From a virus: a stretch of DNA of 64,000 nucleotides. A program made the position numbers and the translations under genes. The notes under the pieces were generated by a model. It searched no databases. It was not told the DNA's origin and saw only the letters and a program-made list of their open reading frames with translations. Shown here one piece after another: positions 44,007-61,791 of this stretch (position 1 is the stretch's first letter; the number at the start of each line of letters is the position of its first letter). Location: the IMG/VR virus record IMGVR_UViG_3300032523_001366, positions 4,016 through 68,015 of that record. One strand, given 5' to 3'.

Positions 44007-44035
44007 ATTTTTTTCTATTCACATTGAGGTGTAAC

Positions 44036-44956
44036 ATGACCGATAAATTTGAGGCCCTTCATAACACTACAAAAGCCGCAGGCAATACTCATGAGGTAGA
44101 AGCTGCAGACAAGGTTAGTGGGGACGTGATGGAGCTAACGAAAGCTGAGCTAGAGCTCAGAAAGAAAGCTATAGACGGTATGGACGAGCAACTTCTAGCC
44201 ATTTATCAGCAGGAGGTTGCCGCCTATAAAGACCATAGAGGAGACATCGTAAGTTTTAATTATGATAGAGGCACCGTAGCAGCAGAGGTAAATAGAAATC
44301 CTAATTACGGTACTGCGGCAATTGACCTACTAAGTGTCGCTCTAGGACTTGATAGGTCTACGATGTATAAAACAATGCGATTCAGTAACATGTATACTAC
44401 AAAGGCGGATCTTGAAGACACACTTCAAGACGCAGACAAAAGAGGAGTAACTCTTACTTGGTCTCACTTTGTAGCCGTCCTTTCCATTCCAGAAACAGAA
44501 GGCTCGTCTGACCCACATGAAGACAGGCGTAGAATGCTGGATACTGCAGTAGAAAATAAGATGTCCGTTAGAGCATTGTCTGCTGAAGTTAAGCTGGTCT
44601 ATGGCAATAGCACAGCTACTAAGGTCAACACAGCTAGAGCTAATGTGAAGTCCTTATTCAAGCAGCTGGATGGAGGCAATACCAGGTTCGCGGTTAAGCT
44701 GAAGAGTAAGGCCGACGATTTGATTAGTGACTTTGACGAAGCTGTAGAGACAGGGTCGTCTGAAGACATTAAGCACTACCTAGAAAAAGCCTTAGCTCTA
44801 AAGTTAAGCCTCGATGCAGTTATTGACCTCGTAGGAAGGGTAAAAAGCTTCATAGATAAGTTCCCAGGTAAGATCAGTAGTGCAGTAGCCGAGAGAAAGA
44901 AGGTAGCTGACATGCGAGATGACTCTGACACTAAAAAGTCAAAGGTAGCTAAGTAA
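44036..44956 (+). CDS. protein with DUF1016/YhcG N-terminal-like helical domain
   Basis: STMYKTMRF...LTWSHFVAVL...AVENKMSVRAL. Confidence 0.5.
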   Translation: MTDKFEALHNTTKAAGNTHEVEAADKVSGDVMELTKAELELRKKAIDGMDEQLLAIYQQEVAAYKDHRGDIVSFNYDRGTVAAEVNRNPNYGTAAIDLLSVALGLDRSTMYKTMRFSNMYTTKADLEDTLQDADKRGVTLTWSHFVAVLSIPETEGSSDPHEDRRRMLDTAVENKMSVRALSAEVKLVYGNSTATKVNTARANVKSLFKQLDGGNTRFAVKLKSKADDLISDFDEAVETGSSEDIKHYLEKALALKLSLDAVIDLVGRVKSFIDKFPGKISSAVAERKKVADMRDDSDTKKSKVAK

Positions 44957-45642
44957 TGTCTACAACCATCTGTTGTTTACTGTATGGTAACTACACAAAG
45001 CTCGCTGATAGGTGCCTTAGGCCTATCAGCGAGCTTTATAACAATGGGGTAGAGGTGAGGCTTGGGTGCAACGAGACATCTCAAGATACAGAGGACTTAA
45101 TAAACAAGCTACTACCTCCGTCAGAAAGACTAACGGTGATAAGGCACAACCCTCAGATATACAAGTACCCTATTATGAGGGAGCTATTTAACGTTAAGCC
45201 TATAACTACTGACAAGGTTATGTGGTTCGACGATGACAGCTTTATAAAAGATACAAACCCTATCGGCTGGCTGAACTCTACTCAAGAGTTCATGGATAAT
45301 ACCAAAGCCAACATGATAGGGTCCCTGTACTACATGCCGGTGTCGCATAAACAACAACAGTGGAGACGTCTCCACTGTTCTTGGTTTAAGCCTGAGCTCC
45401 ACAAAAGTAAGGCCTGCTTTGCTACTGGAGGCTGGTGGACTATTAAGTCAGAGGTAATAACTAAATACGATTGGCCTCATCCTATGCTAAAGCACAGAGG
45501 AGGCGATGTACTATTAGGAGAGCTTATGAGCCACGCCGGGTTAAAGCTGGTAAGGTATAACACTGGTATAGGCATAAATTCTGACAGTGAGGGCAAAGAG
45601 TCACAATCAAAACGTAGAGGTTATGATGAGCCCCCAATTTAG
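44956..45642 (+). CDS. GT-A fold glycosyltransferase
   Basis: MWFDDDS DxD-type motif; FATGGWW; GGDVLLG. Confidence 0.6.
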   Translation: MSTTICCLLYGNYTKLADRCLRPISELYNNGVEVRLGCNETSQDTEDLINKLLPPSERLTVIRHNPQIYKYPIMRELFNVKPITTDKVMWFDDDSFIKDTNPIGWLNSTQEFMDNTKANMIGSLYYMPVSHKQQQWRRLHCSWFKPELHKSKACFATGGWWTIKSEVITKYDWPHPMLKHRGGDVLLGELMSHAGLKLVRYNTGIGINSDSEGKESQSKRRGYDEPPI

Positions 45643-45653
45643 CTGGAGTAAAA

Positions 45654-46595
45654 ATGCGTAAAAAGGATATAGAGCATGAAAAGATTAAAGTGTCTGTCAG
45701 TAAAATACAAGACGTGCGTAAAAGAGTACATGATTGTCTTCGCCCTTTTATTGGTAGTACTCTTTGTGGCGTCGTGTTTGATAGGGCTACATCTGCTCTT
45801 TCATTTTGTGTTCCCAAGTCCTGCATAAACATAACTTGTAGTCAGGACATGCTGTTAAAGTTTACTAGACAACCTGTAACAGCTAAGGATGTAAGGATTA
45901 TAGGTGCAAGGGTTGCAGGTAACCTTGAGCACATAATGTCCGGTAACCCTATGTATGACAATGACTGGAGGTCAAGGTCTGGATGGGGCTTAGTCCAGGT
46001 GTTTGGAATAGAGAAGGCTACAAGGACGTTCAAGGATGGAGTAACTCAGTCAGGAGCGTGGCTTGACCTGGATATACATTCAGGACCTGCTAGTGGGTAT
46101 AAGCTAAAGAAGTTTTGGTCTTTGGATATGTTTAACTTTGCTAAATATAGAATGGGGTTTAGTTACCCTACATCTAACCCTACCTCTAAAGCAGTATGCG
46201 GCTATCCATTTTTAGATGAGTCATATGTATTTGGCTTATACTTTTTAGGGTACTTTGATCACATGGCCCTTAGAGGAGATAAGCCGGAATACACTAAGTT
46301 CTTGTGTACTGACTACCTGGTAGACATAAACAGAAAGCTTTTAAGGAAGAGACTTAGGTCTATACACACTAAGGAGGACTTTAAATGCCCGACTTCTGTA
46401 CCTGTTTCAACCCCTTGCCACAAATGCCCTTCTGGCGTAGACGCGTGCGAAGCAGCAGTAAGAAGAAAGTCATACATATCGGGTGACTGTAAGTCGTGCG
46501 GGCAGTTATCTTGGATAGATCCCTATAAGTCTGACTCTTGCATTAATTGTAGTTCCTCGGTAAGCTTACACGTAATTACGGTACCTAAAGAATAG
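45654..46595 (+). CDS. hypothetical protein with Cys-rich C-terminus
   Basis: CHKC, CKSC, CINC. Confidence 0.65.
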   Translation: MRKKDIEHEKIKVSVSKIQDVRKRVHDCLRPFIGSTLCGVVFDRATSALSFCVPKSCINITCSQDMLLKFTRQPVTAKDVRIIGARVAGNLEHIMSGNPMYDNDWRSRSGWGLVQVFGIEKATRTFKDGVTQSGAWLDLDIHSGPASGYKLKKFWSLDMFNFAKYRMGFSYPTSNPTSKAVCGYPFLDESYVFGLYFLGYFDHMALRGDKPEYTKFLCTDYLVDINRKLLRKRLRSIHTKEDFKCPTSVPVSTPCHKCPSGVDACEAAVRRKSYISGDCKSCGQLSWIDPYKSDSCINCSSSVSLHVITVPKE

Positions 46596-46615
46596 AAGAA
46601 AGGCAGAAGATAGTC

Positions 46616-47113
46616 ATGGCAGTAAATATGATAGGACACCCAGACAAGAGAAGATACAACCCAGGCAGGGATATAGCCTATTGCTGGCCGTGGATTATGC
46701 GCTCAGCCATAGATCGCATTACATCTGGGTCTGGTGAACCGTGGGCGTTAAAGGTTATAGATAAGTACAACATAAGTAATGAAGACCTAGTAAAAGTGGC
46801 CAAGGGTTTGGCCACTTTTATGGCTTTATGCAATGACCCAGAGAAGTGCCCAGACAATCCAAAGGACACAGTAGAAGCAAGTGGTCTATTTGGGTGTAGC
46901 GAAGAGGCTAGATTACTAGTATACTCTGCGGTCGGAGAGACCATGTTGGCTGCTTTCTTTTTAGCTATCAGGGATGTTTTGTTAGAAGACGAACCATCTC
47001 CTCTTAATGATAAAAGGTTTGCAGAACTTATTCAGGCCTCCATGGATAAACTTTGTCTACGGAACGAGTCATTCTTCAGACGTTTTCTGAGGAAGATTAA
47101 GTCCTGGTTCTAA
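46616..47113 (+). CDS. hypothetical protein
   Basis: 165-aa ORF. Confidence 0.65.
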   Translation: MAVNMIGHPDKRRYNPGRDIAYCWPWIMRSAIDRITSGSGEPWALKVIDKYNISNEDLVKVAKGLATFMALCNDPEKCPDNPKDTVEASGLFGCSEEARLLVYSAVGETMLAAFFLAIRDVLLEDEPSPLNDKRFAELIQASMDKLCLRNESFFRRFLRKIKSWF

Positions 47114-47128
47114 CTAGATTGGATAGTC

Positions 47129-47911
47129 ATGGATGATGGCAGTATCTGGCTACTACAAGCTGTGTCTAAGCTTGGGCCCCTTCCAGTTAATTACCTAGTA
47201 TTCGATGTTGAATCGACGGGACTAGATCTTAAGAACGATCTAGTGGTTCAGCTTGGATACGCTGTAGTAATAAATAAGAAGCTAGTAGACTGCTCTCATT
47301 ACATACCAGATTGGACATCTGGAAAGGACAAGCACTTCTGTAACTGGCTGGAGAACAGAATGCTGATGACTAAAAATAGTATGGAGTCCCGCAACCAAGG
47401 ACAGGGGCCTATGTATAAGCACAGCACTCATAGAATGAAGGCAGAGGGAGTACCAGTTGCCGAAGCATTTACAAACTTTATGGACATCATAAAGATATGT
47501 AAGGCTAATAAGTTAAGCCTTATAGCCCACAACGGGCTTAAGTTTGACCAGCCCATTCTTAATAACAATATAAAGCAGGTTCTTGGTGAGCATGAATCCT
47601 TTGAGTTTGAAAAGATTGGAGTTGGCTATTTTGACACTATGGCAATGGAGCGAGGATTGTACAGCAGGATAGTGCCATATCCTGAGGATGATTGGATGAG
47701 CTTTACCGGCAGACTTGTAAAGGAGGGAGGAAGAATATATTCTTCTTTAGATAGGCACTGTTCAAATAAATATAATTTAGTAAACAAACATAGTATGAGT
47801 GGTAGTGCTCATGAGGCGGATTTTGACTGTAGATTAACCCACCATCTTTTTGAAGAGTACAGAGAGATGTGCGAGAGAGTCCAGCAAACCATAATCAAAG
47901 AGATTAAATGA
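47129..47911 (+). CDS. DEDDh 3'-5' exonuclease (DnaQ-like)
   Basis: FDVESTG, AHNGLKFD, FDT, AHEADFD. Confidence 0.88.
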   Translation: MDDGSIWLLQAVSKLGPLPVNYLVFDVESTGLDLKNDLVVQLGYAVVINKKLVDCSHYIPDWTSGKDKHFCNWLENRMLMTKNSMESRNQGQGPMYKHSTHRMKAEGVPVAEAFTNFMDIIKICKANKLSLIAHNGLKFDQPILNNNIKQVLGEHESFEFEKIGVGYFDTMAMERGLYSRIVPYPEDDWMSFTGRLVKEGGRIYSSLDRHCSNKYNLVNKHSMSGSAHEADFDCRLTHHLFEEYREMCERVQQTIIKEIK

Positions 47912-48546
47912 AATTCAACGTAGAAAAATATCCTGAAGACCTAGGAGAAAAGGTATCTGCCCTCAGGGTAGATAACACCAAGACAGTACTAGGATTAGAC
48001 CTAGGTACTAACTGCGGGTACTCTTACTGCTTCATAAATACCAAAATTGAAAGCAAGACTAGAATACACGCCGGACAGCTGGATCTATCAGCCGGCCCTT
48101 ACGATTCCGGAGCTATAAGGTTTATACGACTTAGGCAGTTCTTGTCTGCTATAAAGCCTGACCTTATATGCTACGAAGACGTAAAGTATACTCCATCAGG
48201 ACAGGGCTTTATGAGTGTAGGAGCTATTATAGCTAGAGCTGCCCCTGCTTGCGAATGGTTCGGAGCCCTTAAGGCTACAGTAAGTACTTGGGCTGAAGAG
48301 AATAATGTTCCTTGCTCTGGAATACCTATCGGTACTATAAAGAAGAGGGCAACTGGAAAAGGTAACGCAAATAAGGTAGATATCATAAAGGCTTGTAACA
48401 GCGAGTTTGGATTCGACTTTGACCATGAGGGTTATGAGAGCTCCGGAGTGGACAACATAGCAGACTCCGTGTACGTATGTGCTTTGGCAGTAGAAACTTA
48501 TGGATTAGGATTTAAAGAACAGAAAGAGGTTTTAGATGCACGCTAA
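47908..48546 (+). CDS. ruvC: RuvC-like Holliday junction resolvase
   Basis: LGLDLGTNCG, CYED, IKKRATGKGNANK, DNIADS. Confidence 0.85.
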   Translation: MKFNVEKYPEDLGEKVSALRVDNTKTVLGLDLGTNCGYSYCFINTKIESKTRIHAGQLDLSAGPYDSGAIRFIRLRQFLSAIKPDLICYEDVKYTPSGQGFMSVGAIIARAAPACEWFGALKATVSTWAEENNVPCSGIPIGTIKKRATGKGNANKVDIIKACNSEFGFDFDHEGYESSGVDNIADSVYVCALAVETYGLGFKEQKEVLDAR

Positions 48547-49495
48547 TCACGTTAACAACAGTAAGGTAGCTCACGCTACAAAAGACCCTTTAAAGTCAGC
48601 CCTGCTATATGAGGCAGAGGGCCCCGGAAGTCTATACTTTATGGACGCCCTAAAGCTGTCTAGGATGCTAGAGACAGCAGCCTTGGCAGACGTACAGGCT
48701 AAAGCATCAGCAATGGGTGCTAGTAGTGAGGCAGTGGATAAGCTTAAGCGCGACGTGGTCTATATGGCCAGGTCAAACCCCATAGAGAGCTTTAGAATAT
48801 CCAAGGCCTGTAGTAAGGCTTCAAAGTACCTATCAGACTCCTCTGAAAAGCACTCTAAAGGCTCTGGCTCAATACCTTCAAAAAAATGCAAGCCCCTTTA
48901 TAACAGGGAGAAGTATATGCAGAGGTTTGATGCTGGCTTAAATAACGATGAGCTTATAACTTCAAGTATACCAAACCTATTTACGGGTAAGAGAGAAGAC
49001 CTAGACTTAGTTATCTCTTACATACTAGATAGGTGTGAGATAAACGAGAACTGTTGCTTGCACTTAAGCTCAAAGAGCTTTAACAAGAAGCTTAATAAGA
49101 ACTACAAAAGGCTTAAACCAGAAGACTGGGAAGGAAAGTTAAAGGCTAGGAATAACTCAGGCATGAAAGGCTTGATAGCTATAGGAAGCATGCTTAAGCC
49201 GCTTGAAGTGTTAATAGTAGATGACCTAAGCCTTGGTTATGGCTATTCTGATAAGGCTTACTCTAATCTTAGAAAGGCTCATATGTGCTACAATAGCTGC
49301 AGCCTTAGCACATGCGCTAGGGGCGTAGTATTGTTAGCGTTTCAGGAAGCTGTATCTGACGATAAGATAAAAGACTCTTTCGCTATGACATCTATGATTG
49401 AAAAGTCAAACTATTACGAATGTCTGTCTGACGGTAAGAGTGTGTTCTTAAGGGATAAGTCTTTCAACCTAGTCCTAACTATACCTAAGGAGTAG
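48536..49495 (+). CDS. hypothetical protein
   Basis: 319-aa ORF, GAGGT SD. Confidence 0.65.
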   Translation: MHANHVNNSKVAHATKDPLKSALLYEAEGPGSLYFMDALKLSRMLETAALADVQAKASAMGASSEAVDKLKRDVVYMARSNPIESFRISKACSKASKYLSDSSEKHSKGSGSIPSKKCKPLYNREKYMQRFDAGLNNDELITSSIPNLFTGKREDLDLVISYILDRCEINENCCLHLSSKSFNKKLNKNYKRLKPEDWEGKLKARNNSGMKGLIAIGSMLKPLEVLIVDDLSLGYGYSDKAYSNLRKAHMCYNSCSLSTCARGVVLLAFQEAVSDDKIKDSFAMTSMIEKSNYYECLSDGKSVFLRDKSFNLVLTIPKE

Positions 49496-49496
49496 C

Positions 49497-50162
49497 ATGT
49501 CAGATAAAAGACTATCACATGAGGAAGTTGAAATCCTAGTAAGCGGAACTCCAGACACTGAATTTGTGGGGCGGGCTCCTGTAGACGAAGGCATAGTTGA
49601 TGGCAAAATAGACTCACCCTCTATGAGTGAGCTTAAAAAGCTGCCAGCCTTGAAAAGAGTAGAGCTATCTGACTCTCTGTCAAGCCTTACCAATGACTTT
49701 GTGTTCTTTAACCATACTATGCTGTTTTCAAAGGGAGGGTTAGACTTTGACCCCCTTATGGAGTATCAGGCGTGGTGCGGTAAAGATAGCGCTGTAAACT
49801 ACATGGTATTCAATAGGAAGATATTCAATAACTTCGACTTTCCAGATAAGAGCGGGGGTCATGACAGCCTTCTAGCCTTCACTACTGTAGAGCACTGGCC
49901 CGTAATAGAGAAAGCCATAGGATCACTTACTATTCTTAATCGAAGTAAGGATTACATGTTTCTTTGTGAGCTAGCTAAGGTTAAGATACCTGACCCCAAG
50001 AACCCTAAAATGTTCATAGAGCCTTATATATGGAACCTGAGAGGATCGATCTGTAGCTGGGAGTGTTCAGGATACCCAGTACCCCAGCTTATAAAGAAAC
50101 CAGCTAACTACGAAGCAAAACGACTTATGAGGGCCATTAAAAATGAGCGACTTGATCCCTGA
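49497..50162 (+). CDS. hypothetical protein
   Basis: 221 aa, AAGGAG SD. Confidence 0.7.
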   Translation: MSDKRLSHEEVEILVSGTPDTEFVGRAPVDEGIVDGKIDSPSMSELKKLPALKRVELSDSLSSLTNDFVFFNHTMLFSKGGLDFDPLMEYQAWCGKDSAVNYMVFNRKIFNNFDFPDKSGGHDSLLAFTTVEHWPVIEKAIGSLTILNRSKDYMFLCELAKVKIPDPKNPKMFIEPYIWNLRGSICSWECSGYPVPQLIKKPANYEAKRLMRAIKNERLDP

Positions 50163-50442
50163 TAGAAGATTCTTAAAGACTAAGACCTTTGTTGAAGAGA
50201 GAGTCTACGAGAGACCCGTAGGAGCAGCTCCAGATGACTGGCGCTTAGTTAAAGTAACAGAGCCCCTAGACGATACAGTTAATAACTGGGTCGTTAAAGA
50301 AAGGGTTACTATTGTAAGCACATCTCCTCCTGGAATTAACAGCAGGTGGCTAGACAAGGACATGACCAGTAGGGCAGTACTGATTGCTTTGACGATCATA
50401 TATGAAGGCGGCATAAATGAACAATGGCCAGAACGAGTCTGA
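50143..50442 (+). CDS. hypothetical protein
   Basis: 99 aa, overlapping operon gene. Confidence 0.55.
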   Translation: MSDLIPDRRFLKTKTFVEERVYERPVGAAPDDWRLVKVTEPLDDTVNNWVVKERVTIVSTSPPGINSRWLDKDMTSRAVLIALTIIYEGGINEQWPERV

Positions 50443-50761
50443 TTCAGGCCATGAAGGCGGGAATGACAATAAGTTCTACCTTATGATCATACCCGCTCAT
50501 GGTAAGCCGGAATGCAAGGAGTTTATATCGAAAGACGACCTTGTTTCCGAATTAAGATCCCTGTCTAAGAAAAGGGTATCTTGTCATGTATTTGAAGGGC
50601 AGCGCTGGCACATATCTTTACCTCCTCGCAAGCTTATTTCTCCAGACGGATCTATAGAGGCTGACCTATCTCACAACCCAGACTCAATAGACATAGACTT
50701 AGAAGGGTACCTTTTTGAAGACCCAGCTGTAGTCGACGACGAGGATGAATTCGAAGTTTAG
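50417..50761 (+). CDS. hypothetical acidic protein
   Basis: 114 aa, last gene before cassette A. Confidence 0.6.
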   Translation: MNNGQNESDSGHEGGNDNKFYLMIIPAHGKPECKEFISKDDLVSELRSLSKKRVSCHVFEGQRWHISLPPRKLISPDGSIEADLSHNPDSIDIDLEGYLFEDPAVVDDEDEFEV

Positions 50762-50777
50762 CGACATATCTACCTCC

Positions 50778-50805
50778 TAAATTCAGCTAAAAAACGCGTC
50801 ATAAT
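50778..50805 (+). promoter_or_regulatory. cassette promoter motif
   Basis: TAAATT...CGCGTCATAAT; one of six copies. Confidence 0.7.
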
Positions 50806-50851
50806 CATATGTTACGGCTACCCGCCGTCAACTGAAAGGGAGGGTGCAGAT

Positions 50852-51112
50852 ATGGAGATCATTGTTCTCCTATCCCTTGTCATATTTCTTGTCTGGGCGT
50901 GCTCGTCACGCAAAGGCAAGAAGCAGCCAGAAGGCGTAGTGCCCATGAGGCCTTACGTACTTCTGGATGGCCAACTCAGGGAAGTTGTCCATCGGAAAAG
51001 AATGGGTGGATCCGTAGTGTGTACGGTGAAGCCATTGGAGAAGGGCTGCCCTCGGGCCCGAGTAATCGTTCCTGCGGAAGGGAATGATATAACCTGGTTA
51101 CCTAAAAGGTAA
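50852..51112 (+). CDS. small membrane-anchored hypothetical protein
   Basis: GGGAGG SD; hydrophobic N-terminus ending WACSS. Confidence 0.6.
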   Translation: MEIIVLLSLVIFLVWACSSRKGKKQPEGVVPMRPYVLLDGQLREVVHRKRMGGSVVCTVKPLEKGCPRARVIVPAEGNDITWLPKR

Positions 51113-51136
51113 CCTCTTTATGAAGGATATAACACG

Positions 51137-51868
51137 ATGTTATCAGCTAATGGAGTGGTAGGTGGTGGTGTTTCTGGTTTAACCAAAGCGGCCTTAGAGG
51201 CCTTATTTGGTGGCGCTTACGATAGTAACGCCTGGGTCCTATGGCTGCCTGATGACGGGCAGTCGACCACCTTTAAAGGTGGGGACTTATTCACGGAGGA
51301 GAGGGTGATAGCCCTCGTGCGGTACGGAAACAAAAATGTTTCCGTCTGGAAGAGCATTGAAGGTCAAATGACGCCTATGTGCGTCTTTGTCCCCGCTAAG
51401 TGGGGATTTGGCAAGAATAAGAATATCCCAATAGCTTCGGCTTATGCTGAAGGCTTGTTGGGAGTGACGCCCGCCGACGGGTTCCTTGATCACCTAACCC
51501 TCCCAAAGAGGGTGGTAGGGTTTAGGGATGCAGACCTAGAGACGTTTGACGTCTCGGAATGCAATCAGAAGTACCTCTCGTCTCTGGCTAGGTCTAACGA
51601 CCCTGCCAAAATGGAGGCGTCATTTGAGGCCCTCAAGGCGAAGAAAATAGGGGGTATGAGCTTTATCCCCGAGGCGGTCTTACCGGACAGTTATGTTCGA
51701 GGTATAGATCAGCCATCTTTACTAGACTTATCAGGTTTGATCGATCATTTCAGGGAGCCGATTCCCCAAATGGTCTACCAGACTGCCTTAACCAAGCACG
51801 GGCTCGGTTATGGCGCCGCCCTCGGAGGAATCCGTAGGCGGGAGAAGAATACCCGAGGAAGGGCGTAA
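51137..51868 (+). CDS. hypothetical protein
   Basis: 243 aa, AAGGA SD; stop lies in a GTAA tetraloop hairpin. Confidence 0.65.
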   Translation: MLSANGVVGGGVSGLTKAALEALFGGAYDSNAWVLWLPDDGQSTTFKGGDLFTEERVIALVRYGNKNVSVWKSIEGQMTPMCVFVPAKWGFGKNKNIPIASAYAEGLLGVTPADGFLDHLTLPKRVVGFRDADLETFDVSECNQKYLSSLARSNDPAKMEASFEALKAKKIGGMSFIPEAVLPDSYVRGIDQPSLLDLSGLIDHFREPIPQMVYQTALTKHGLGYGAALGGIRRREKNTRGRA

Positions 51869-51869
51869 G

Positions 51870-52170
51870 CCTTTCCTCGGATAGGGCTATGGCGTTCTCT
51901 CCATAGCTTTGCAGGACCTGCGGTAGCGCTTATAATTCCTGATGCCGCTTAGACGGCTAGGGTGTAGTATGCGCTGCAGTAAGAGCTGCCCTTCAATGGG
52001 TAGAGAAGCTTAGGGGCACAAATGGTAACTCCTAAGTAGTATTCCAGGCCCCTGTTCGGCTAACCCTTCAATAAGGTGAACGACAGTCCAATACCGGTGC
52101 TCCCGGTTCTGAAGACTGGTTTGAGCGGGGGGCAGTTTAACTTCGACAGCCTCAGCAATGGGGCTGTCAT
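51870..52170 (+). ncRNA. candidate structured non-coding RNA
   Basis: ~300 nt with no ORF in the track; consecutive stems, e.g. GACAGCCTCA-GCAA-TGGGGCTGTC, CTTAGGGG/CTCCTAAG, CAGTC/GACTG. Confidence 0.45.
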
Positions 52171-52194
52171 TTAACATTAGCCAGGAGGGTAGTT

Positions 52195-52374
52195 ATGTTA
52201 TATGAAGCAGAAGTTATTGGGGAGTGGCGGGTTGATGCCGCTGTCGAAAGACAGTGCGTCCTCGCCGCGTTAAAGAGTGCCGAAAGGCACGGACCCGGAG
52301 ACTTCCGGGTTTTAACAGCTACCTCTGGAGGTAGCGTAGACGTGGTATACGTAAAAGTATACCTAATTAACTAG
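52195..52374 (+). CDS. 59-aa hypothetical protein (not in track)
   Basis: AGGAGG SD; MLYEAEVIGEWRVDAAVERQ...; five hairpins within the CDS. Confidence 0.5.
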   Translation: MLYEAEVIGEWRVDAAVERQCVLAALKSAERHGPGDFRVLTATSGGSVDVVYVKVYLIN

Positions 52375-52382
52375 ACCTAAAC

Positions 52383-52424
52383 CACAGGAGCCTTAAACGG
52401 CTTCTGTGATTTTTTTTTAGCTAT
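52383..52424 (+). terminator. terminator with AGCTAT tail
   Basis: CACAGGAGCC-TTAAAC-GGCTTCTGTG, T9, AGCTAT. Confidence 0.85.
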
Positions 52425-52656
52425 TAGATATCGTTACCTAGGATTACTTCTAGTACTAGAGGGATACCGTATCCCACCAGATATATGGAGGACATAATTA
52501 AAATCACATGATAGTAGGGATTGCCAGTTATGAAGTATCCTATATTATCTGCAATCCATACTATCCGATCTTCTAATCTCATGTTGCTTATTGCTCCAAT
52601 AAACAGTAGAAAGTTATAGTATAAGTTATTGCTTCAATATACTCGAAAGGATAATC

Positions 52657-53424
52657 ATGAACGGATATAACGGTCTAAGGTCTGTAACGGATGGATCAAA
52701 CATAGATCCAAATAGGAAGACAACCAAAATAATCGTAGATCCTCATGAGCTGGACTCATTCACTATAGACATAAGTGCTATGAAGTCGGCAGCTAATCCT
52801 CATGCAGTAAAGTGGCCCGATAAGCAGGCTGATCTTAGGTCCCTCAACGGTGTGGATAGGTCAAAGTTAATATCCGACAATCTTAGAAAGATGTCTAGGG
52901 ACGTAACTCAGGAGTCTCCCCCCAACCTAGGTACAGTGTCCGCTACTATTGATGGGGGTAATCACGCTAACCCGTCTGCAATGTTACCCGGTTCAGCCGT
53001 AACTCCACCGTCTGTAAGGGTTTATTTCGATATGCCAGGGCTGGCTACTCTTAACTCTAAGTATCATGGAGCAGCCTTAGTACCTGGGTACCTTGTCCTC
53101 ACGACGGATATGCGGTATGCAGGCCCAGGCGAGTTTTACCCATTTACTAGTAAGCTAGCTAACGAGTCTTCGGCATACATTGGAGTTATGGTAGAGGGCA
53201 TAGATAGCCTATTTCTCATCAGACCTCCAGCTATTACTCATAAGTTCGGACCTTACGAGCACTGCCTTGTACCTATCAGCCAAGAAAAAGAGCTTCCAGA
53301 AGAGATTAAGAAGAACGTTGATAAGGATAAAGAAGTGGAGGCGTCTCCACAAACAGAGTATGATGATAAAGTTGGTTATGAGGAATATGATAAAAAATCT
53401 AGCGACGATATCGGTGTACTTTAA
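52657..53424 (+). CDS. hypothetical protein
   Basis: 255 aa, AAGGA SD. Confidence 0.7.
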   Translation: MNGYNGLRSVTDGSNIDPNRKTTKIIVDPHELDSFTIDISAMKSAANPHAVKWPDKQADLRSLNGVDRSKLISDNLRKMSRDVTQESPPNLGTVSATIDGGNHANPSAMLPGSAVTPPSVRVYFDMPGLATLNSKYHGAALVPGYLVLTTDMRYAGPGEFYPFTSKLANESSAYIGVMVEGIDSLFLIRPPAITHKFGPYEHCLVPISQEKELPEEIKKNVDKDKEVEASPQTEYDDKVGYEEYDKKSSDDIGVL

Positions 53425-53472
53425 TATAAAGACATAAGATCGGTATCACATAAGCCTTAGGAGACTGGTTTC

Positions 53473-55425
53473 ATGCCCGACTATTCAGAAGGAGCCCTAG
53501 GACGCGGATGGGCACTAAACGGCCGAGGGGATGAACCGTTTCCAGATCCATTTATGGATTATGCCTCTACAGTTATGCCTGAGAATATCAGGGATGGCCT
53601 AAGGTACTGCGAGTTTATCTTTCATTCAAACTCAATGATAAGAGAAGCGGCTAGAAGGGTCTTAAGCTATTTTATCACTGACGTAGAGATAAGAGGCTTA
53701 AACGGTAAAGACTTAGGCGATGACGAGCGCCAGAAGTATGTATCATTCCTGGCTGAGACTCTAGACATAAAGACCATCCTGCACTCAGTAGGCCTAGACT
53801 TTCTCTGCTACGGCAATAGCTTTACCACTCTAGTAGTTCCCTTTAGAAGGTATCTCTACTGCCCTAAGTGCGGCCTTGATGTTCCACTAAAGAACATGAT
53901 TAATAATCCTAGCTTTGCATTCAAGTGGTCCATGCCTGAGTTTCAGGCTGTTTGCCCTAAATGTAAGTTCACTGGTAACTGGAAGCGAGTAGATAGGCGC
54001 ACTAACGAACCAGAAGAGGTGCGTATTAGGCGCTGGCCAGCCGTAGAAATGGAAATAAGACATGACCCAGTAAGGGATAACCGAGATTACCTGTGGCGTA
54101 TACCAGAAGACTATAGGCTTCAAGTACGCAGAGGTGACCCCCAAATCCTAGAGACTGTACCATGGGAGATAGTCGAGGCTGTGGCCGCTAATGGGTTTCT
54201 TCTATTCGACAAGAAGGCTGTACATCATATGTATGAGCCTACTCTATCTGGAGTAAGGTCTAGAGGTTGGGGCATCTCTAGAACCCTAGTTAACTTTAGG
54301 CACGCTTGGTATGTGCAGGTGCTTCATCGATACAACGAGGCTATCGCGCTAGACTACGTTATTCCGTTCAGGGTACTAACTCCAGAGCCACAGTCTAGCT
54401 CAATGCCAGAAGCCGGTGATCCACTTATGAACATGGATCTAGGCGGCCTCAGAGGCCAAGTCCAAGCCATGCTCAGAAAGCGAAGAAGAGATCCGGCATC
54501 ATGGAACTTCCTTAGCACTCCTATTAAGTACCAGATGCTTGGCGGAGAGGCTAGAAACTTAGCGCCTACAGATCTGCTAGAGGCAGGTATAACTAACTTA
54601 CTTAACGGCTTTGGTATGCCAGCTGAACTATACAGAGGCACCCTTAGTCTTCAGGCTGCTCTTCCAGCTATTAGACTCTTTGAGTCCAGCTGGCAGTACC
54701 TTGTTCACTGCCTTAATAGCTTCCTAGCTGAGACCATAAAGTCAGTAGGGGACGCATTTGGCTGGGAGCCAGCTACTTGCAGACTTATCAAGCCCTCTAT
54801 GCTTGACGATGTTCAGCTTATCATGTCCAAGATGCAGCTTATGCAGGCCCAGCAGGTCAGCCAGACTGGCGTGCTTAGAAGTATGGGTATGGACTTCAAA
54901 GAAGAGCAAAGGCAGATTCTCGACGAGCAAAGATTTGTTCAAGAGGAGCAAGCCAAGCTTCAGAAGAGTATGGAAGACTCTTCTATTATGGAGCAAATGG
55001 CTCCATCTGTAACTGGGCAGTTCATGCAGTCTATGCAGCAGGGAGGACAGCCTCCTCAACCAGGCGGAGCCCCTGCACCGCAAGGAGCTCAGCCACCTCC
55101 GGGACCTGCTCAGAGCGCACCTCAAGGCCAAGGAGCCCCTCCCCCTCAGGGAGCTGCAGGTATGGCCGCCCAAGGTCTGTCGCTATCTACTCCTACTGGG
55201 CCTAACCAGAAGGTAACTCCTCAGGACATGCAGGCAAAGGCACAGGCATTAGCGGATCAACTGCTAGCTATGCCTGAGTCTCAAAGACAGTCTGAGATGA
55301 CTAAGCTTAAATCCCAAGATCCGATTATTCATAGCTTGGTTAAACAGACCATAGGTAACATTAGACAGCAGGCCCAGACACAGGGAGCTAGAATGATGCT
55401 ACAACAACAATACGGCGTACAGTAG
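53473..55425 (+). CDS. probable portal protein with CPKC...CPKC insertion and Q/P-rich tail
   Basis: 650 aa; size and low-complexity tail fit large-phage portals; no diagnostic motif, so function is inferred. Confidence 0.5.
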   Translation: MPDYSEGALGRGWALNGRGDEPFPDPFMDYASTVMPENIRDGLRYCEFIFHSNSMIREAARRVLSYFITDVEIRGLNGKDLGDDERQKYVSFLAETLDIKTILHSVGLDFLCYGNSFTTLVVPFRRYLYCPKCGLDVPLKNMINNPSFAFKWSMPEFQAVCPKCKFTGNWKRVDRRTNEPEEVRIRRWPAVEMEIRHDPVRDNRDYLWRIPEDYRLQVRRGDPQILETVPWEIVEAVAANGFLLFDKKAVHHMYEPTLSGVRSRGWGISRTLVNFRHAWYVQVLHRYNEAIALDYVIPFRVLTPEPQSSSMPEAGDPLMNMDLGGLRGQVQAMLRKRRRDPASWNFLSTPIKYQMLGGEARNLAPTDLLEAGITNLLNGFGMPAELYRGTLSLQAALPAIRLFESSWQYLVHCLNSFLAETIKSVGDAFGWEPATCRLIKPSMLDDVQLIMSKMQLMQAQQVSQTGVLRSMGMDFKEEQRQILDEQRFVQEEQAKLQKSMEDSSIMEQMAPSVTGQFMQSMQQGGQPPQPGGAPAPQGAQPPPGPAQSAPQGQGAPPPQGAAGMAAQGLSLSTPTGPNQKVTPQDMQAKAQALADQLLAMPESQRQSEMTKLKSQDPIIHSLVKQTIGNIRQQAQTQGARMMLQQQYGVQ

Positions 55426-55431
55426 AAGGCT

Positions 55432-55968
55432 ATGGAACTTATTATGAGCACTATAAGCAATTTCTTTAAAATGATTATGGACAGCGGTCCGGCCACGGAT
55501 CACCCCGAGGACGCAGCCATGCTTACTAGCGATGAAGTTACAGAACTTCTTACCTTGAATAACAAGACAAGAAACGTATATAACCTTCCACCTTTAGCGG
55601 TAGATGATGACTGCTCCTTGGTTGCTAGGTCTCATGCTATATGGATGTCAAACTCTCAAAATGTATCCCACATGGGATTCAGCTTCTTTGGCCCTGTTCA
55701 GCGTATGGCTATAGTAGGTAAGGAGCCGGAGAGCATAGGCGAGTGCATCTCTTACTCTATAGGGTCTGATGTAAAGGACTTGATGAAGGCCTGGTTCCTG
55801 TCTGAAAGTCATAGAGTTATTATACTAGGTAAGTACGATAGATTCGGCGTGGGCAGAGTACTAGGCCCTCATGATGGTAATTACTATTGGTGCGCCATAT
55901 ACAGCACCTGTAAGGGTGCTCGCAATGCCCCTATTGTAAAGATGTCAGACAGCATAGTGGATCTTTAG
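55432..55968 (+). CDS. CAP/SCP domain protein
   Basis: NKTR...LPPL...ARSHAIWM...SH...GECI...WFLSESHR...YWC. Confidence 0.8.
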   Translation: MELIMSTISNFFKMIMDSGPATDHPEDAAMLTSDEVTELLTLNNKTRNVYNLPPLAVDDDCSLVARSHAIWMSNSQNVSHMGFSFFGPVQRMAIVGKEPESIGECISYSIGSDVKDLMKAWFLSESHRVIILGKYDRFGVGRVLGPHDGNYYWCAIYSTCKGARNAPIVKMSDSIVDL

Positions 55969-55979
55969 AAAGACACATC

Positions 55980-56585
55980 ATGTCTAAAGCAAATATGACC
56001 CCATTCTTCGAGTGGTTCAAGACCTTATCATCTACAAAGCCCTGGTTGGTCGTAGGTAAAGGCCCAAGCTTTAGTAAGGTAAGCAGTATAAATCTTGAAG
56101 ACTACTTAGTAGTAGGTCTAAACCATGTTATGTTTAAAATACCGTGCCTTTTAGGGCATGCTATAGATTATGAGGTTTACAATAAGTCGGATAATAAGTT
56201 TCTTTGCCAACATTTAGTAACTCCATGGGAGCCGCACATAGGCTTTAAGCCAGGAAACAAGAGCTTAGTAGATTTGGATGCCGCTAACAGAATAGGGCAC
56301 AAAGATGTACTATACTACAACAGCAGCAGGACAAGAAAAGTAAGCATGAGGCGCGGAGGCCCAGAGGTAAGGGTTAGACTATTCGGGGCGGTGGCTGTAA
56401 TGAACTTACTAGCCATGGCTGGTGTCAGACTAGTTAATACCCTAGGCATTGACGGCGGTACCAGTTATCATGATGAGTTTAACAAGAGGGATCTTCTCTG
56501 TAATGGAAGGTCATCATTTAATGACCAATTTTCAGAGTTTAATTTCACGAAGAAGAAGTATGGATTAGTTATAAGACCTATGTAA
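55980..56585 (+). CDS. DUF115/Maf-like sugar-transfer protein
   Basis: VVGKGPS, VGLN, LGID motifs. Confidence 0.55.
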   Translation: MSKANMTPFFEWFKTLSSTKPWLVVGKGPSFSKVSSINLEDYLVVGLNHVMFKIPCLLGHAIDYEVYNKSDNKFLCQHLVTPWEPHIGFKPGNKSLVDLDAANRIGHKDVLYYNSSRTRKVSMRRGGPEVRVRLFGAVAVMNLLAMAGVRLVNTLGIDGGTSYHDEFNKRDLLCNGRSSFNDQFSEFNFTKKKYGLVIRPM

Positions 56586-56650
56586 TTAAAATAAACATCG
56601 CTATTTGTTTATAAATCAGTTACTATGCCTCGTTAATATTGGAGAATACT

Positions 56651-57403
56651 ATGCCGAAGGGACCTATAAAGATTTTTGTTGGTACTGAACTTAAAACCAA
56701 GATAGCCTTGGACGTGCTTTCCCATTCCATTAAAAGAAATACTAGCAGCAATGTTGTTATAATTCCTATGATGGGTCCAGAATGGGAAGTACCAAAAGGC
56801 CTTCATCAGGGCACAGGGTTTAGCCTTAGAAGATTCATGATACCTCATTTTTGCAACTATGAAGGACACGCTATCTACCTTGACGCTGATCAGCTAGTCT
56901 TCGGGGACATATCCGAGCTCTGGGGATATGCAGACAGCCTTAAAGATGAGGCAGTAGCCTGTACTTACCAACCCGATAAGTTCAATAAGCAGCCATGGCC
57001 TCAAAGCTCTGTAATGGTTATAGATTGTGCTAAAGTTGGTTGGAACCCCGTAGACATGTGGGACACACTTAGAAGGGGATATAAGTATAGCGACTTCATG
57101 CACTTAACGTTTAGGCCTAATCTCCCGCTTAAGATACCTAATTTCTGGAATAGCCTTAATGTCTATGAGGACGCAACTACTAGGCTTCTACATTACACCA
57201 AAGAGCCCGAGCAGCCTTGGTATAAGCCAGGGCATCCCTTATCCCATTTCTGGGAAGCGGAGCTTGCAAAGGCAATAGCAGCTAAAGCAGTATCAAAATC
57301 TGACTTCCAATTTGCTTTAGACCTTTGGCATAAACCTAAGTTGGATAAGAGGTTAAGCCAAGGCCTTAATCCGTACTACAAGACTTATCTAGGAAAGTTC
57401 TAA
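56651..57403 (+). CDS. GT8-like glycosyltransferase
   Basis: TGFSLRRFMIP, AIYLDADQL, SSVM, WNSL, LLHYT...QPW. Confidence 0.8.
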   Translation: MPKGPIKIFVGTELKTKIALDVLSHSIKRNTSSNVVIIPMMGPEWEVPKGLHQGTGFSLRRFMIPHFCNYEGHAIYLDADQLVFGDISELWGYADSLKDEAVACTYQPDKFNKQPWPQSSVMVIDCAKVGWNPVDMWDTLRRGYKYSDFMHLTFRPNLPLKIPNFWNSLNVYEDATTRLLHYTKEPEQPWYKPGHPLSHFWEAELAKAIAAKAVSKSDFQFALDLWHKPKLDKRLSQGLNPYYKTYLGKF

Positions 57404-58116
57404 TGCGTATAGATAAGCTATACAACATTCATAGAGACTGTGACATATATATAGTCGGCACTGGCCCAACGGCTAGAGTTCTTCCAAAGGATATGTTTGT
57501 AGACAGAATCACCATAGGGCTTAACCAAGCCTACAAGAGCTTTAATGTTAGTTACTCTATAACAGTTCACCCTGAGCTGGAGATGGAACATAGCGTGCTC
57601 ATTAAATCTAACCCCAGGCTAAAGACTAGATGGGTAGTAAAGCATAAGTCACCAACCCGACTGCCATTTGACGATCCTGAACGGTATGTGTTTAATACTA
57701 GCCCCGAGTGGTCTAGCTTTTTAGGTAAAGACAAAGAAACCCTATTCATAGGCAGGGGTGTGCAGCAGACAGCTATAGACCTGGCTTGTAGAATGGGGGC
57801 TAGAGCTATATTTCTAGTAGGGGTTGACATGTCAGACGTTGGAGGAGATCATCACTCTCACAAGCAGCACGTAAGGTTTCATGGCCTTGCGCCGAAAGAC
57901 GTGTATGGTGAATATAGGGAATGGACTTATAAAGCTAGAAAACTGGCTAGAGAAAAGGCAAGAATTCCTGTATTATCTATTTCACCTCTCTTAGGGTGTG
58001 GTGGGTCTATACATGATGCTGATTACATTCAGTTAAGAGATGAGTTTGGGCTGGCTCCGTTGCCTGCTCCAAAAGACACCTCTGGGTATACCAGAGATAG
58101 CATAGATAAACCTTAG
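57403..58116 (+). CDS. DUF115/Maf-like sugar-transfer protein
   Basis: IYIVGTGPT, IGLN, MGARAIFLVGVD. Confidence 0.6.
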   Translation: MRIDKLYNIHRDCDIYIVGTGPTARVLPKDMFVDRITIGLNQAYKSFNVSYSITVHPELEMEHSVLIKSNPRLKTRWVVKHKSPTRLPFDDPERYVFNTSPEWSSFLGKDKETLFIGRGVQQTAIDLACRMGARAIFLVGVDMSDVGGDHHSHKQHVRFHGLAPKDVYGEYREWTYKARKLAREKARIPVLSISPLLGCGGSIHDADYIQLRDEFGLAPLPAPKDTSGYTRDSIDKP

Positions 58117-58130
58117 TTAGGAGCATTACG

Positions 58131-59366
58131 ATGCCAAGCAGATACGACAACCTTAATGCGGCTGTAACCGCTACAGTAAAGGATAGCAAGAATAACAAGC
58201 CTTACCGCATCGTAGAGATCGGTGTACATCATGCTGTCAGAGCTGTAATGATGGTAAAGCTTGCTAAGAAGCTAGGAAGAACGAACATAGAGTACTATGG
58301 CTTTGACCTATTTGAAGACATGACTCCAAATGTTAACTCCATTGAGTTCGGAAAGCCAGCTTTGGCTATGAGCCGAGATGCCGCTAGAAAGCTAATACTT
58401 GCAGCGGGCGCAGCCAAGGTTCAGTTAATAAAAGGCGATACTAAGCTCTCCATGCCTCAAGCTGTTAAAGATATTCCTACTGCTAACGTTGTATTCCTTG
58501 ATGGCGGGCACACACTTGAAACTATAGCAAGTGATCTTGAGAATATTCTTAATTGCTGCAGCTCCAACACCCACATTCTTTTAGACGATTACTACCCTGG
58601 CGTGTATGACAAAGGATGTGCTTTTATTTCCAAATGCTTTACTATGCTAAAGGAACATGGAATAAAGATAGAAGATCTTAATCCTGTAGATGTTGTTGGG
58701 GACAATAAATTAAGCATAAGGATGCTGTCTCTTAGATGCGCTGCCCAGCTGACACCTTCTACCCTCTTAGGCTTTGGAGCTAAGCTACTCAACGAAGCTT
58801 GCCCTACCGCTGAGCCAGAGCCACAAGAGTTTATTCCTCAGGCTACATTTATTGATGACTCGCCTGTAGATACCTCCATTACTTGGCCTGAGTGTAACTT
58901 GGCTAATGTAGAAAAAGCCTTTCAAGAACACGTAAGTAAGCAAGCTAAGACGGAGGTGGTCAGCCCAGTGGCTGACATTACGTTTCCCCCCGCTGATAGC
59001 GGTTGTGATACCGACGTACAACCAGTTCGAGTACGCAAAAATAGCTGTGGAAAGCTGCCTGAAGAACACTGCGAATTGCCTAGTGATTCTTGTGGACGAC
59101 GGGAGTCCTCAATGGAACCTTGCGGATTGGGAGAAGTACCCGAAGAGCCAGCTGCTGCTGCATCGGTTTCCGAAGAACAACAAGAACCTAACCAGATCGT
59201 GGAACCAGGGAATCCTCTTGGCCTTGGAACACCGTGCCAAAGTAATAGTGGCGGGGAACTCCGACCTGAAGTTTCCCCCGAATTGGAGCAAGGGAATAGT
59301 AGAGGCTCTAGAAGAAGGCGCAGGCGTAGTGGGCCCTCTGACGAACGCTCCGGGCCACAGAGCTAA
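58131..59366 (+). CDS. class I SAM-dependent methyltransferase (sequence after ~58990 probably out of frame)
   Basis: IVEIGV, YYGFDLFE, LIKGDT, FLDGGH, LLDDY. Confidence 0.8.
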   Translation: MPSRYDNLNAAVTATVKDSKNNKPYRIVEIGVHHAVRAVMMVKLAKKLGRTNIEYYGFDLFEDMTPNVNSIEFGKPALAMSRDAARKLILAAGAAKVQLIKGDTKLSMPQAVKDIPTANVVFLDGGHTLETIASDLENILNCCSSNTHILLDDYYPGVYDKGCAFISKCFTMLKEHGIKIEDLNPVDVVGDNKLSIRMLSLRCAAQLTPSTLLGFGAKLLNEACPTAEPEPQEFIPQATFIDDSPVDTSITWPECNLANVEKAFQEHVSKQAKTEVVSPVADITFPPADSGCDTDVQPVRVRKNSCGKLPEEHCELPSDSCGRRESSMEPCGLGEVPEEPAAAASVSEEQQEPNQIVEPGNPLGLGTPCQSNSGGELRPEVSPELEQGNSRGSRRRRRRSGPSDERSGPQS

Positions 59367-59727
59367 GCAGCAAGTACTCAAGTATGTAAAAGGATATACT
59401 GTTAGCGATTCTGACCTGAAGCTCGCCCAGGTGTCTGCCCGCCTATTAAAGGAAAGGGCAGGCACCACGGAGTCTGGCCCTCTTAATGGGTTCTGCTTGG
59501 CTGCTCTAGCTAAGACGTGGATCACAGGTGCCCATAGCCTAGGAAATAACCAGTTCTTTAATCCCAAATTCAAGATGATCCGTAATGAGGACGAGTTGAT
59601 GGGAAGATGGAAGAAGCTAGGCCTATCAAGTCGTATAGCCCTGTCTAGCTTCGTCTTTCATTATAGGGGAGTAACGAGAAACCCCTCAGGAAGGAAAGCC
59701 GGCACAGGTAATCTAAGGATTAAGTAA
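59005..59727 (+). CDS. GT2 glycosyltransferase, +1 frame relative to the methyltransferase
   Basis: (LIAVV)IPTYN, VILVDDGS, SWNQG, NSD, VFHY. Confidence 0.8.
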   Translation: MIPTYNQFEYAKIAVESCLKNTANCLVILVDDGSPQWNLADWEKYPKSQLLLHRFPKNNKNLTRSWNQGILLALEHRAKVIVAGNSDLKFPPNWSKGIVEALEEGAGVVGPLTNAPGHRAKQQVLKYVKGYTVSDSDLKLAQVSARLLKERAGTTESGPLNGFCLAALAKTWITGAHSLGNNQFFNPKFKMIRNEDELMGRWKKLGLSSRIALSSFVFHYRGVTRNPSGRKAGTGNLRIK

Positions 59728-61393: not shown

Positions 61394-61759
61394 ATGGACG
61401 TACTAGCTGTAAGACAAGAAGAGAAGCTATGGGGCCGCAACCATATCATTCATTTGGACAACTCCTTTCAGATATGCCACATACATATTCTCAAAGGCGG
61501 ATACTGCTCTAATCACTTTCACCAGCATAAGTGGAATCAATTCTATATAGTCTCAGGCAAGCTAATGATCAGCTGCTACAACTCAGATGGCACTATAAAG
61601 AGCAGCATCATGCTTAGACCTACCGAGTGCATTAAGATACCGCCTGGCTTGCACCATAAGTTTGAAGCTATAGAAGAGACTGAAGCTTTGGAGATCTATT
61701 GGTCTGAGCTATCTGAGCACGACATTGTGCGTACAGACATAGGCGGCATCAAGGCTTAA
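61394..61759 (+). CDS. cupin-fold protein (sugar isomerase-like)
   Basis: KLWG, SNHFHQHK, IPPGLHHKF. Confidence 0.75.
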   Translation: MDVLAVRQEEKLWGRNHIIHLDNSFQICHIHILKGGYCSNHFHQHKWNQFYIVSGKLMISCYNSDGTIKSSIMLRPTECIKIPPGLHHKFEAIEETEALEIYWSELSEHDIVRTDIGGIKA

Positions 61760-61783
61760 TTCAACCCATAAGTGCGTCATAAT
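61756..61783 (+). promoter_or_regulatory. cassette B promoter motif
   Basis: TTAATT...GCGTCATAAT. Confidence 0.7.
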
Positions 61784-61791
61784 AGTATGGA

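Follow-up and report, generated by a model that had tools for sequence, protein, structure and literature searches.

This article concerns a class of small units, which we call cassettes, in the DNA of a large phage from a lake, and the dense hairpins predicted in the RNA they would encode. The phage is represented by a viral contig of 68,015 bp (IMG/VR record IMGVR_UViG_3300032523_001366), of which we analyzed 64 kb, positions 4,016 to 68,015; that whole stretch is what we mean by the window, and positions are counted from its first letter. Nearly all of its genes lie on the plus strand. The two cassette regions used in the comparisons below are 50773-52424 and 61751-63391. The first is a single cassette, C1, with three open reading frames (ORFs): ORF86, ORF243, and ORF59. 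The second is an array, C2 to C5, in which ORF82 belongs to C2 and ORF70 to C4, and the start of a sixth cassette, C6, follows it (Table 1). The original prediction for this DNA, made by a model from the letters and their translations, was that cassette coding sequences are tiled with hairpins, even over their stop codons.

Repeat analysis and a motif scan agree on what a cassette is. It starts with a conserved promoter-like motif, TTAAT..ATAAnCGCGTCATAAT, and ends with a hairpin, then a T-run, then AGCTAT. The scan of the 68-kb contig found seven promoter motifs, all on the plus strand and each upstream of a unit. At five junctions, on sequence evidence only, the hairpin, T-run, and AGCTAT are followed within ~30 nt by TTAAT..CATAAT, terminator and next promoter making up one ~90-nt junction. 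The units can be read as autonomous transcription units, with promoter and terminator functions that are predicted. Their contents are genuine small protein genes together with a tRNA and one or more RNAs without an ORF; since tRNA-Met(CAT) lies in a unit of the cassette type, the class would drive a stable RNA too. Cassette GC content is 0.47-0.51, against 0.44 for the genome (0.498 vs 0.439).

Two public metagenome contigs, L001 and L002, are ~98% identical to the window over 43138-59789, L002 being part of a 126-kb contig, and L003 is 87% identical over 48202-51301. A search of viral contigs with a 16-nt promoter pattern returned 67 loci, five of which (L011, L028, L035, L043, and L066) are true relatives by blastn; the rest were chance matches by the same measure and were dropped. 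The five come down to three related phages, L011 and L035 being one, L028 and L066 another, and L043 the last. G001 denotes a 190-kb relative. Against the phage GenBank collection, blastn gave no match. In the three related phages, units of this architecture occupy the two sites known from the window, with partly different content, and three loci of G001 together contain nine promoter-to-terminator units. At the first site, an orthologous but highly diverged gene pair is retained in relatives; the arrays at the second site differ in number and content among the window, L043, L011, and G001. Phages with only 64-79% identity in their core genes have junctions that are 91-97% identical.

ORF243, ORF59, ORF86, and ORF82 are coding, judging by how their sequences vary and by their homologues. 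ORF243 differs from its counterpart in L002 at 62 places, 52 of them third codon positions, with six amino acid changes; in ORF59, third positions account for 13 of 14 differences and no amino acid changes. ORF86 has orthologues at 91% identity in L003 and 40% in G001, ORF243 has homologues at 47-48%, and ORF82 has 10 homologues of 80-83 amino acids, 72-96% identical, with indels of whole codons. ORF70 is a candidate whose coding status is unproven: in a library of 1.84 billion proteins it had one match at 96% and otherwise uninformative matches, weak and repeat-like, to very long proteins. None of the five cassette ORFs of the window matched a family in Pfam or PHROGs, no loci came from searches for relatives of ORF243 in viral contigs or of ORF82 in viral contigs and genome contigs, and an AlphaFold model of ORF243 from four sequences had no usable fold (predicted local distance difference test score, pLDDT, 33.6). 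Rfam 15 gave no match in the window at gathering score; at E up to 5, the two cassette regions gave 0 and 3 sub-threshold matches, the best with 18.8 bits against a cutoff of 93.

Table 1. Features of the cassettes and related loci (window positions unless marked; excess is folding energy relative to synonymous shuffles, in kcal per 100 nt)
Feature	Position	Strand	Description
C1	50773-52424	+	Three ORFs plus a 326-nt gap
C1 promoter-like motif	50773-50811	+	TAAATTCAGC..AAAAAACGCGTCATAAT; -10-like CATAAT at 50800-50805; repeat family D1; same site in relatives
ORF86	50852-51112	+	Small protein, hydrophobic N-terminus; excess -2.9
Hairpin over ORF86 stop	51096-51114	+	8 bp, AAA loop; TCTTTAT after it
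ORF243	51137-51868	+	Protein gene, strongly structured; excess -5.5, gene-level z -5.2
Hairpin over ORF243 stop	51853-51880	+	11-12 bp; GTAA loop contains the TAA
Intercistronic stretch	51869-52194	+	326 nt; both ends structured; RNA contigs continue through it
Hairpin before ORF59 ribosome-binding site	52145-52168	+	10 bp, GCAA loop
ORF59	52195-52374	+	Coding; five hairpins within 52241-52363, two with GAAA loops; excess -9.2; dinucleotide z -4.3
C1 terminator-like hairpin, T9 run, AGCTAT	52383-52424	+	Intrinsic type as predicted; repeat D4
C2	61751-62176	+	Promoter 61751-61789; leader 61790-61873; ORF82; terminator with T-run and AGCTAT 62133-62176
ORF82	61874-62122	+	Excess -12.3, the largest of 77 genes
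Hairpin over ORF82 stop	62103-62130	+	12 bp
C3	62183-62732	+	Promoter and terminator; no ORF >47 amino acids; mean z -1.41
C4	62737-63096	+	Promoter, leader, ORF70, 12-bp TTCG-loop terminator hairpin 63056-63083, then T-run and AGCTAT
ORF70	62839-63051	+	Candidate ORF; excess -7.6
C5	63113-63391	+	Promoter, C2-like leader, 15-codon frame only (from 63239), terminator; repeats D5, D8, D13; mean z -2.58
C6 start	63408-64000	+	Promoter motif; ORF from 63517 with FGE-sulfatase-like domain, cut at contig end
tRNA unit upstream of window	genome C1:3586-4041 (window -430 to 26)		tRNA-Met(CAT) at genome 3810-3883; same promoter-terminator type
gpA-type large terminase	10071-11927	-	
G001 cassette gene	L083:1501-1878 (contig ~106.8-107.2 kb)		125 amino acids; putative minimal 2H phosphoesterase, two H-x-T motifs

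Folding in the cassettes

All the structures described here are predicted; none was measured. We calculated RNAfold z scores for 1279 segments of 100 nt, taken at steps of 50 nt, each against 25 dinucleotide shuffles. The mean z of the whole window was -0.73; it was -2.01 in cassette segments (n=66) vs -0.66 elsewhere (n=1213; Mann-Whitney p = 9e-11). Because segments overlap, random contiguous blocks of the same size were drawn as an additional test, and fewer than 1 in 5000 reached the cassette mean (block permutation p = 2e-4). The two cassette regions contain 14 of the 15 lowest 1.65-kb blocks and are, by these predictions, the most structured stretches of the window. Among core segments z and GC content were uncorrelated (rho -0.02), cassette segments were lower in every GC bin, and the 25 segments lying wholly within cassette ORFs had a mean z of -2.41.

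Synonymous codons were shuffled 20 times per gene in 77 of the 78 genes, the DNA polymerase gene being left out. The mean folding excess was -7.5 kcal per 100 nt in the five cassette ORFs vs -2.2 in 71 other genes (p = 2e-4), for which the median was -1.9. Cassette ORFs take ranks 1, 2, 4, and 8 of the 77; ORF86 is only modestly structured. After correction for GC content and codons, cassettes and core genes remain distinguishable.

The hairpins listed in the original prediction are all present, at the places it gave or a few bases away. ORF243 alone has the CCACCTTTAAAGGTGG hairpin at 51267-51282, GAGGGT-GATA-GCCCTC at 51301-51316 (five Watson-Crick pairs plus one G-T), ACGGAAACA-AAAA-TGTTTCCGT at 51324-51345, and GAGACGT-TTG-ACGTCTC at 51539-51555. 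Perfect hairpins, with a stem of at least 6 and a loop of 3-8, number 12 vs 3.2 expected in the five cassette ORFs and 138 vs 78.8 expected in the other 72 genes. Stop codons fall within a hairpin in three of seven cassette frames vs 5 of 68 core genes, and the three are the ones that had been foreseen. ORF82 and ORF70, said to share the pattern of the C1 genes, do so, as their excesses in Table 1 attest.

The relatives behave likewise. Mean z in cassettes vs the rest was -2.06 vs -0.40 in L043, -2.07 vs -0.53 in L066, and -1.58 vs -0.25 in L011, and further loci of G001 gave -1.77 vs -0.63 and -2.30 vs -0.41. Two units in L080 repeat units already counted in L066.

Signs of selection on the sense strand

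Folding of cassette sense RNA appears to be under selection, and the clearest signs of this come from natural variants. The mean minimum free energy (MFE) of ORF243 is -34.23 in the window and -35.95 in the L002 variant, vs a mean of -30.34 +/- 1.16 for 150 random synonymous sets matched in number, type, and codon position, none of which is as stable as the L002 variant. The same test gave p ~0.03 for ORF59 and again for ORF86, and z of +0.4 to -1.8 for six core genes. In the predicted structure of the C1 transcript, five pairs that changed on both sides still pair and one broke. Where a single change struck a Watson-Crick pair of the window structure, the result was G-U 13 times and A-C 3 times, though overall transition counts are symmetric.

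The strands can also be compared directly. In the window, the MFE of the sense strand is below that of the antisense by 4.0 kcal per 100 nt in cassettes vs 1.9 in core, cassette z is -2.01 on the sense strand vs -1.57 on the antisense (p = 0.003), and G-U makes up 11.7% of pairs on the sense strand vs 8.7% on the antisense. For the relatives the sense strand is ahead by 4.8 in cassettes vs 1.3 in core, a difference that remains after regression on G+T skew (p = 1.5e-6). Spacer-less palindromes (1.5 vs 1.0 per kb, barely enriched) and loop-length spectra gave no clear cassette-specific signal. The original prediction had proposed selection for a folded single strand; these results support that, and the strand they point to is the sense RNA, but they do not separate nuclease from CRISPR resistance, the two agents it had named.

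Compared with L002, the window differs by 3.4-8.5% in the cassette ORFs (50852-52374) and by 0-2.2% in 17 core genes (within 43138-59789). The ORF243 differences are concentrated in 51319-51821, which suggests a recombination patch or faster evolution.

Cassette RNA in lake metatranscriptomes

Part of C1 is present in six lake metatranscriptome runs, of which we examined four, from four studies. In these four runs the C1 RNA contigs begin at 50822-50832, 10-20 nt past the start expected just downstream of CATAAT, and stop at the terminator stem (52372-52390). A single RNA contig of 1594 nt covers the entire C1 unit. The DNA contigs L001 and L002 continue across both C1 boundaries. Contig depth, a poor measure of expression, was 6.7-56 for C1, 34.6-131.6 for C3, and 2-7 for core genes; the deepest RNA contigs were those of C3 in four of four runs, which had been picked for containing C1, with C3 playing no part in that choice. 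Where RNA contigs leave the window uncovered, we do not read this as silence. Given how the runs were picked and how poor a measure depth is, the RNA data are a consistent hint and not proof.

C3 has a promoter and a terminator and no ORF of more than 47 amino acids, which makes it a candidate non-coding RNA of the phage, perhaps an abundant one. It shares only its first ~40 nt and last ~110 nt with the matching unit of L043, and a search for its 3' motif found L043 alone. In two metatranscriptome runs adapter sequence abuts 62247, which suggests an RNA 5' end there. Inside C3, at 62489-62515, is a decayed terminator-like copy without a T-run, which points to C3 having arisen from two earlier units that fused.

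A putative 2H phosphoesterase gene

The most extreme gene we have seen is in a cassette of G001. Sequence and structure model together indicate a genuine protein of the 2H phosphoesterase fold and a putative enzyme. It has 11 homologues at 43-68% identity, with HHxT and KHIT conserved in the 12 sequences, and its AlphaFold model has a pLDDT of 96.9. The top Foldseek matches are CNPase catalytic domains (template-modeling, TM, score 0.61-0.74); Acb1, a phage anti-CBASS enzyme, is at rank 50 among the structural matches, with a TM score of 0.45. A profile search of the family against PDB sequences returned nothing significant. Counter-defence and RNA repair are candidate roles.

This gene is a near-continuous array of perfect 9-12-bp hairpins. 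Its whole coding sequence (CDS) has an MFE of -192.3 vs -124.7 +/- 5.6 in synonymous shuffles, a z of -12. Homologues in other phages, at 36-38% identity, have z of +0.5, +0.45, -0.4, and -2.9; with distant homologues near zero, the protein sequence does not force the hairpins, which were imposed in this lineage. A 65%-identical homologue, L084:1340-1990, lies on an unrelated 459-kb contig and has z -4.1. It retains 89 of 136 predicted pairs vs 38-54 in shifted controls, with eight compensatory changes. It is without promoter and terminator motifs, yet has long perfect hairpins on its flanks. Being over-structured without the motifs of a unit, it raises the prospect that the phenomenon may extend to other large phages.

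Other features of the units and the window

A 5' leader of ~80 nt is common to C2, C4, and C5 (61790-61873, 62776-62838, and 63152-63238). It holds the hairpin GGGCAGGTATGCCC, then ..ACGAAAGGAAAATACCATG, and a unit of L043 has a similar leader. It may be a shared stabilizing or translation-control element. At the other end, the terminators of C3 and C5 (62692-62725 and 63351-63384), like several in relatives, are predicted to form two mutually exclusive hairpins, either GTCCTG-AGC-AGGAC or GAGCAG-N9-CTGCTC followed by the T-run; an antiterminator/terminator switch is possible.

The 326-nt intercistronic stretch of C1 is missing from the first-site cassettes of two relatives. An insertion of 47 nt containing a perfect 18-nt palindrome follows 51946 in L001 and L002, and RNA contigs from four runs have it too. 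The ORF of C6 is 68% identical to a G001 cassette gene. Outside the cassettes, the palindrome GGAGACGTCTCC occurs at 1057-1070, 8651-8664, and 45356-45379 (there extended to 24 nt), and in part at 53338-53352 and 60741-60755. In the cassette junctions of G001 it separates the terminator from the promoter, and a regulator may bind there. Besides the terminase, the named genes of the window are a MoxR-like AAA ATPase with a VWA partner, helicases, a DNA polymerase, a UvsX-like recombinase, a methyltransferase, and glycosyltransferases.

What the hairpins may be for

The reading we prefer is that cassette sense RNA is selected for many short local hairpins, most likely making the transcripts compact and long-lived. 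We would give this an even chance of being right. Hairpins inside the coding sequence and over stop codons would resist single-strand-specific ribonucleases and 3' exonucleases, they might perhaps also protect transcripts from Rho, and transcripts so protected would accumulate to high levels. Stabilization fits the hairpins over stop codons and unit ends, a unit type common to a tRNA and an ORF-less RNA, and the RNA depth. We infer promoter and terminator activity, the timing of expression, and stabilization as the purpose. A bolder form of the idea, which we think unlikely, is that these are "armoured" RNAs: the units would be a dedicated class in large freshwater phages, with existing protein genes, such as the 2H phosphoesterase gene, recoded by selection into near-continuous 9-12-bp hairpins, and the RNAs would survive RNA-directed host attack early in infection. 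Were that true, the attackers would be ribonuclease toxins, type III or VI CRISPR, or the degradosome, and coding-sequence folding would itself be the counter-defence trait, legible from sequence alone.

Several observations weigh against our preferred reading. The core is itself mildly over-structured, with a negative excess in 64 of 71 genes, such that its absence from core genes, an unquantified impression in the original prediction, holds relative to the cassettes and not in itself. Four genes outside the cassettes (19279-19623, 12662-12832, 38423-38644, and 2959-3303) match cassette values and may be another class of structured transcripts; the 114-amino acid ORF at 19279, which lies outside motif-bounded units, has a dinucleotide z of -3.6 and an 11-bp hairpin. 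Within the cassettes the excess is uneven, with mean z per cassette from -0.78 to -5.06, and some units owe most of it to the terminator. Counted from the L002 structure, the preference for G-U over A-C is weaker, at 15 vs 8. GNRA/UNCG tetraloops, 6 of 32 sense vs 0 of 25 antisense in the window, showed no such bias in the relatives (6 of 63 vs 4 of 48), and we discount them; of the two strand signatures put forward at the outset, it is the G-U pairs that favor the sense strand. Contig depth has the limits already given. Openness at ribosome-binding regions is only a little above that of ORF bodies, which gives no clear sign of design for efficient translation and favors none of the competing purposes.

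A cause at the level of DNA strikes us as distinctly unlikely. Here intrastrand template switching would perfect inverted repeats, or single-stranded DNA (ssDNA) or cruciform structures would serve cassette movement through a single-stranded intermediate, as the original prediction had allowed. The excess is mostly strand-symmetric, as the antisense z attests, many stems are perfect Watson-Crick repeats, the 47-nt indel between strains holds its perfect palindrome, and cassette content varies between relatives, all of which such a cause would explain. It would not explain why sense folds better than antisense beyond composition, nor why stems tolerate G-U over A-C with transitions symmetric overall, and spacer-less palindromes are barely enriched. 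A passage through single-stranded RNA or DNA also sits poorly with every unit having a terminator and a promoter of its own, integron cassettes being promoterless. The content differences lie between the ~90-nt conserved junction repeats, as in double-stranded DNA recombination of the promoter-early stem-loop (PeSL) type, and these repeats would be enough for ordinary homologous exchange. The single-stranded intermediate of the original prediction is not supported. That nothing about structure is selected, with foreign, GC-richer composition or non-coding RNAs misread as ORFs producing the signal, is a view we regard as very improbable and largely refuted. Cassettes are indeed GC-richer, C3 and C5 have no real ORFs, and ORF70 is of doubtful standing. 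Both kinds of shuffle control composition, however, z does not follow GC content, and cassette segments are lower in every bin; ORF243 and ORF59 change mostly at third positions, ORF86 and ORF82 have homologues, the G001 gene gives a confident enzyme model, and folding is preserved across natural variation.

Two further purposes would also act through the sense RNA. The hairpins might shield transcripts from RNA-guided or RNA-cutting immunity (type III or VI CRISPR, ribonuclease toxins) by hiding target sites in the first-acting genes, such as those for counter-defence. On this view structure in a target RNA would hinder Cas13; the signals of sense-RNA selection serve this explanation as well as our own, and cassette ORFs diverge faster than core genes between near-identical strains. 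The phosphoesterase of G001 belongs to a fold class that includes Acb1, but its top structural matches are CNPases. With nothing that ties the host of this phage to such immune systems, spacer matches not having been sought, and with a tRNA and an ORF-less RNA in the same type of unit, we find shielding improbable. Tuning of translation, in which hairpins slow ribosomes, set the ratios of ORFs through the stop codons, or limit toxic host-takeover proteins, seems to us a comparably slim prospect. It would account for the frequency of stop codons in hairpins, for the hairpin over the ORF86 stop directly before the ribosome-binding site of ORF243, and for ribosome-binding regions that are not clearly open. 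The excess is nonetheless equal in units without a convincing ORF, as in C5, the folding runs along whole ORFs and is not concentrated at their starts, and the high RNA depth would be left unexplained.

Comparison with known systems

In open-access texts we found no account of coding sequences tiled with hairpins and limited to one class of phage units that a promoter defines. A study of high-stability mRNA regions in Escherichia coli reportedly found strong local folding inside coding regions. Integron cassettes, which are promoterless and have one terminal attC site that folds as ssDNA, are also small exchangeable gene units, and a folded single strand was what the original prediction had in mind. 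The phage cassettes differ in having their own promoter and terminator, hairpins throughout their ORFs, and a sense-RNA bias. General scans of the window proteins showed no integron integrase; attC sites were not specifically searched for. If our findings are confirmed, a phage would mark a class of small transcription units by a common promoter and terminator, and selection in those units would shape synonymous sites, and even the choice of amino acids, for RNA folding. An effect of this size, with whole-gene z down to -12, would be detectable from sequence alone and would offer an easy computational way to pick out, in metagenomes, phage transcripts that are highly expressed or protected. 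Wild type and synonymously recoded cassette genes would be a test bed for how coding-sequence structure controls the fate of bacterial mRNA.

Phage lambda offers a precedent for the folding itself. The available part of that study reports selection for strong folding in late genes and not early genes (PMC5737525). As here, folding energy is below that of protein-preserving shuffles and there are compensatory changes in mRNA stems; going by the same part of the paper, the lake-phage signal differs in gathering in a single class of short units defined by a promoter, and in its much greater strength, z falling to -12 over a whole CDS and perfect hairpins of 9-12 bp coming in runs (PMC5737525). 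The morons of lambdoid phages resemble the cassettes in having their own promoter and terminator, in lying between core genes, and in their deviant base composition (GC content 0.49-0.51 vs 0.44 here). They are without bounding conserved repeats, and the available portion of the source mentions no excess mRNA folding in them (PMC2839356).

The closest likeness in architecture is to PeSLs, the mobile regulatory cassettes of T4-type phages (PMC2839356, PMC4122927). As set out in the part of PMC2839356 we draw on, a composite terminator-plus-promoter element of ~100 bp occurs in many copies with small orphan genes between them, the element stays conserved where relatives differ in what it encloses, a promoter and a terminator come with every gene, and a stem-loop terminator is joined to a sigma-70-like promoter, this last being matched in the lake phage by sequence alone. 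There are differences. The motif sequence of the lake-phage units is another, the group has only 7-9 units per 68-190 kb, and the units also hold a tRNA and ORF-less RNA; hairpin-rich coding sequences are not mentioned for PeSLs in that part of the paper (PMC2839356). The lake phage is apparently not T4-like, its terminase matching the gpA type, and it also has a UvsX-like recombinase and a DnaB-like helicase; protein scans of the window showed no T4 core gene set, for which no systematic search was made. If confirmed, the cassettes would be a PeSL-like shuffling system outside the T4 group.

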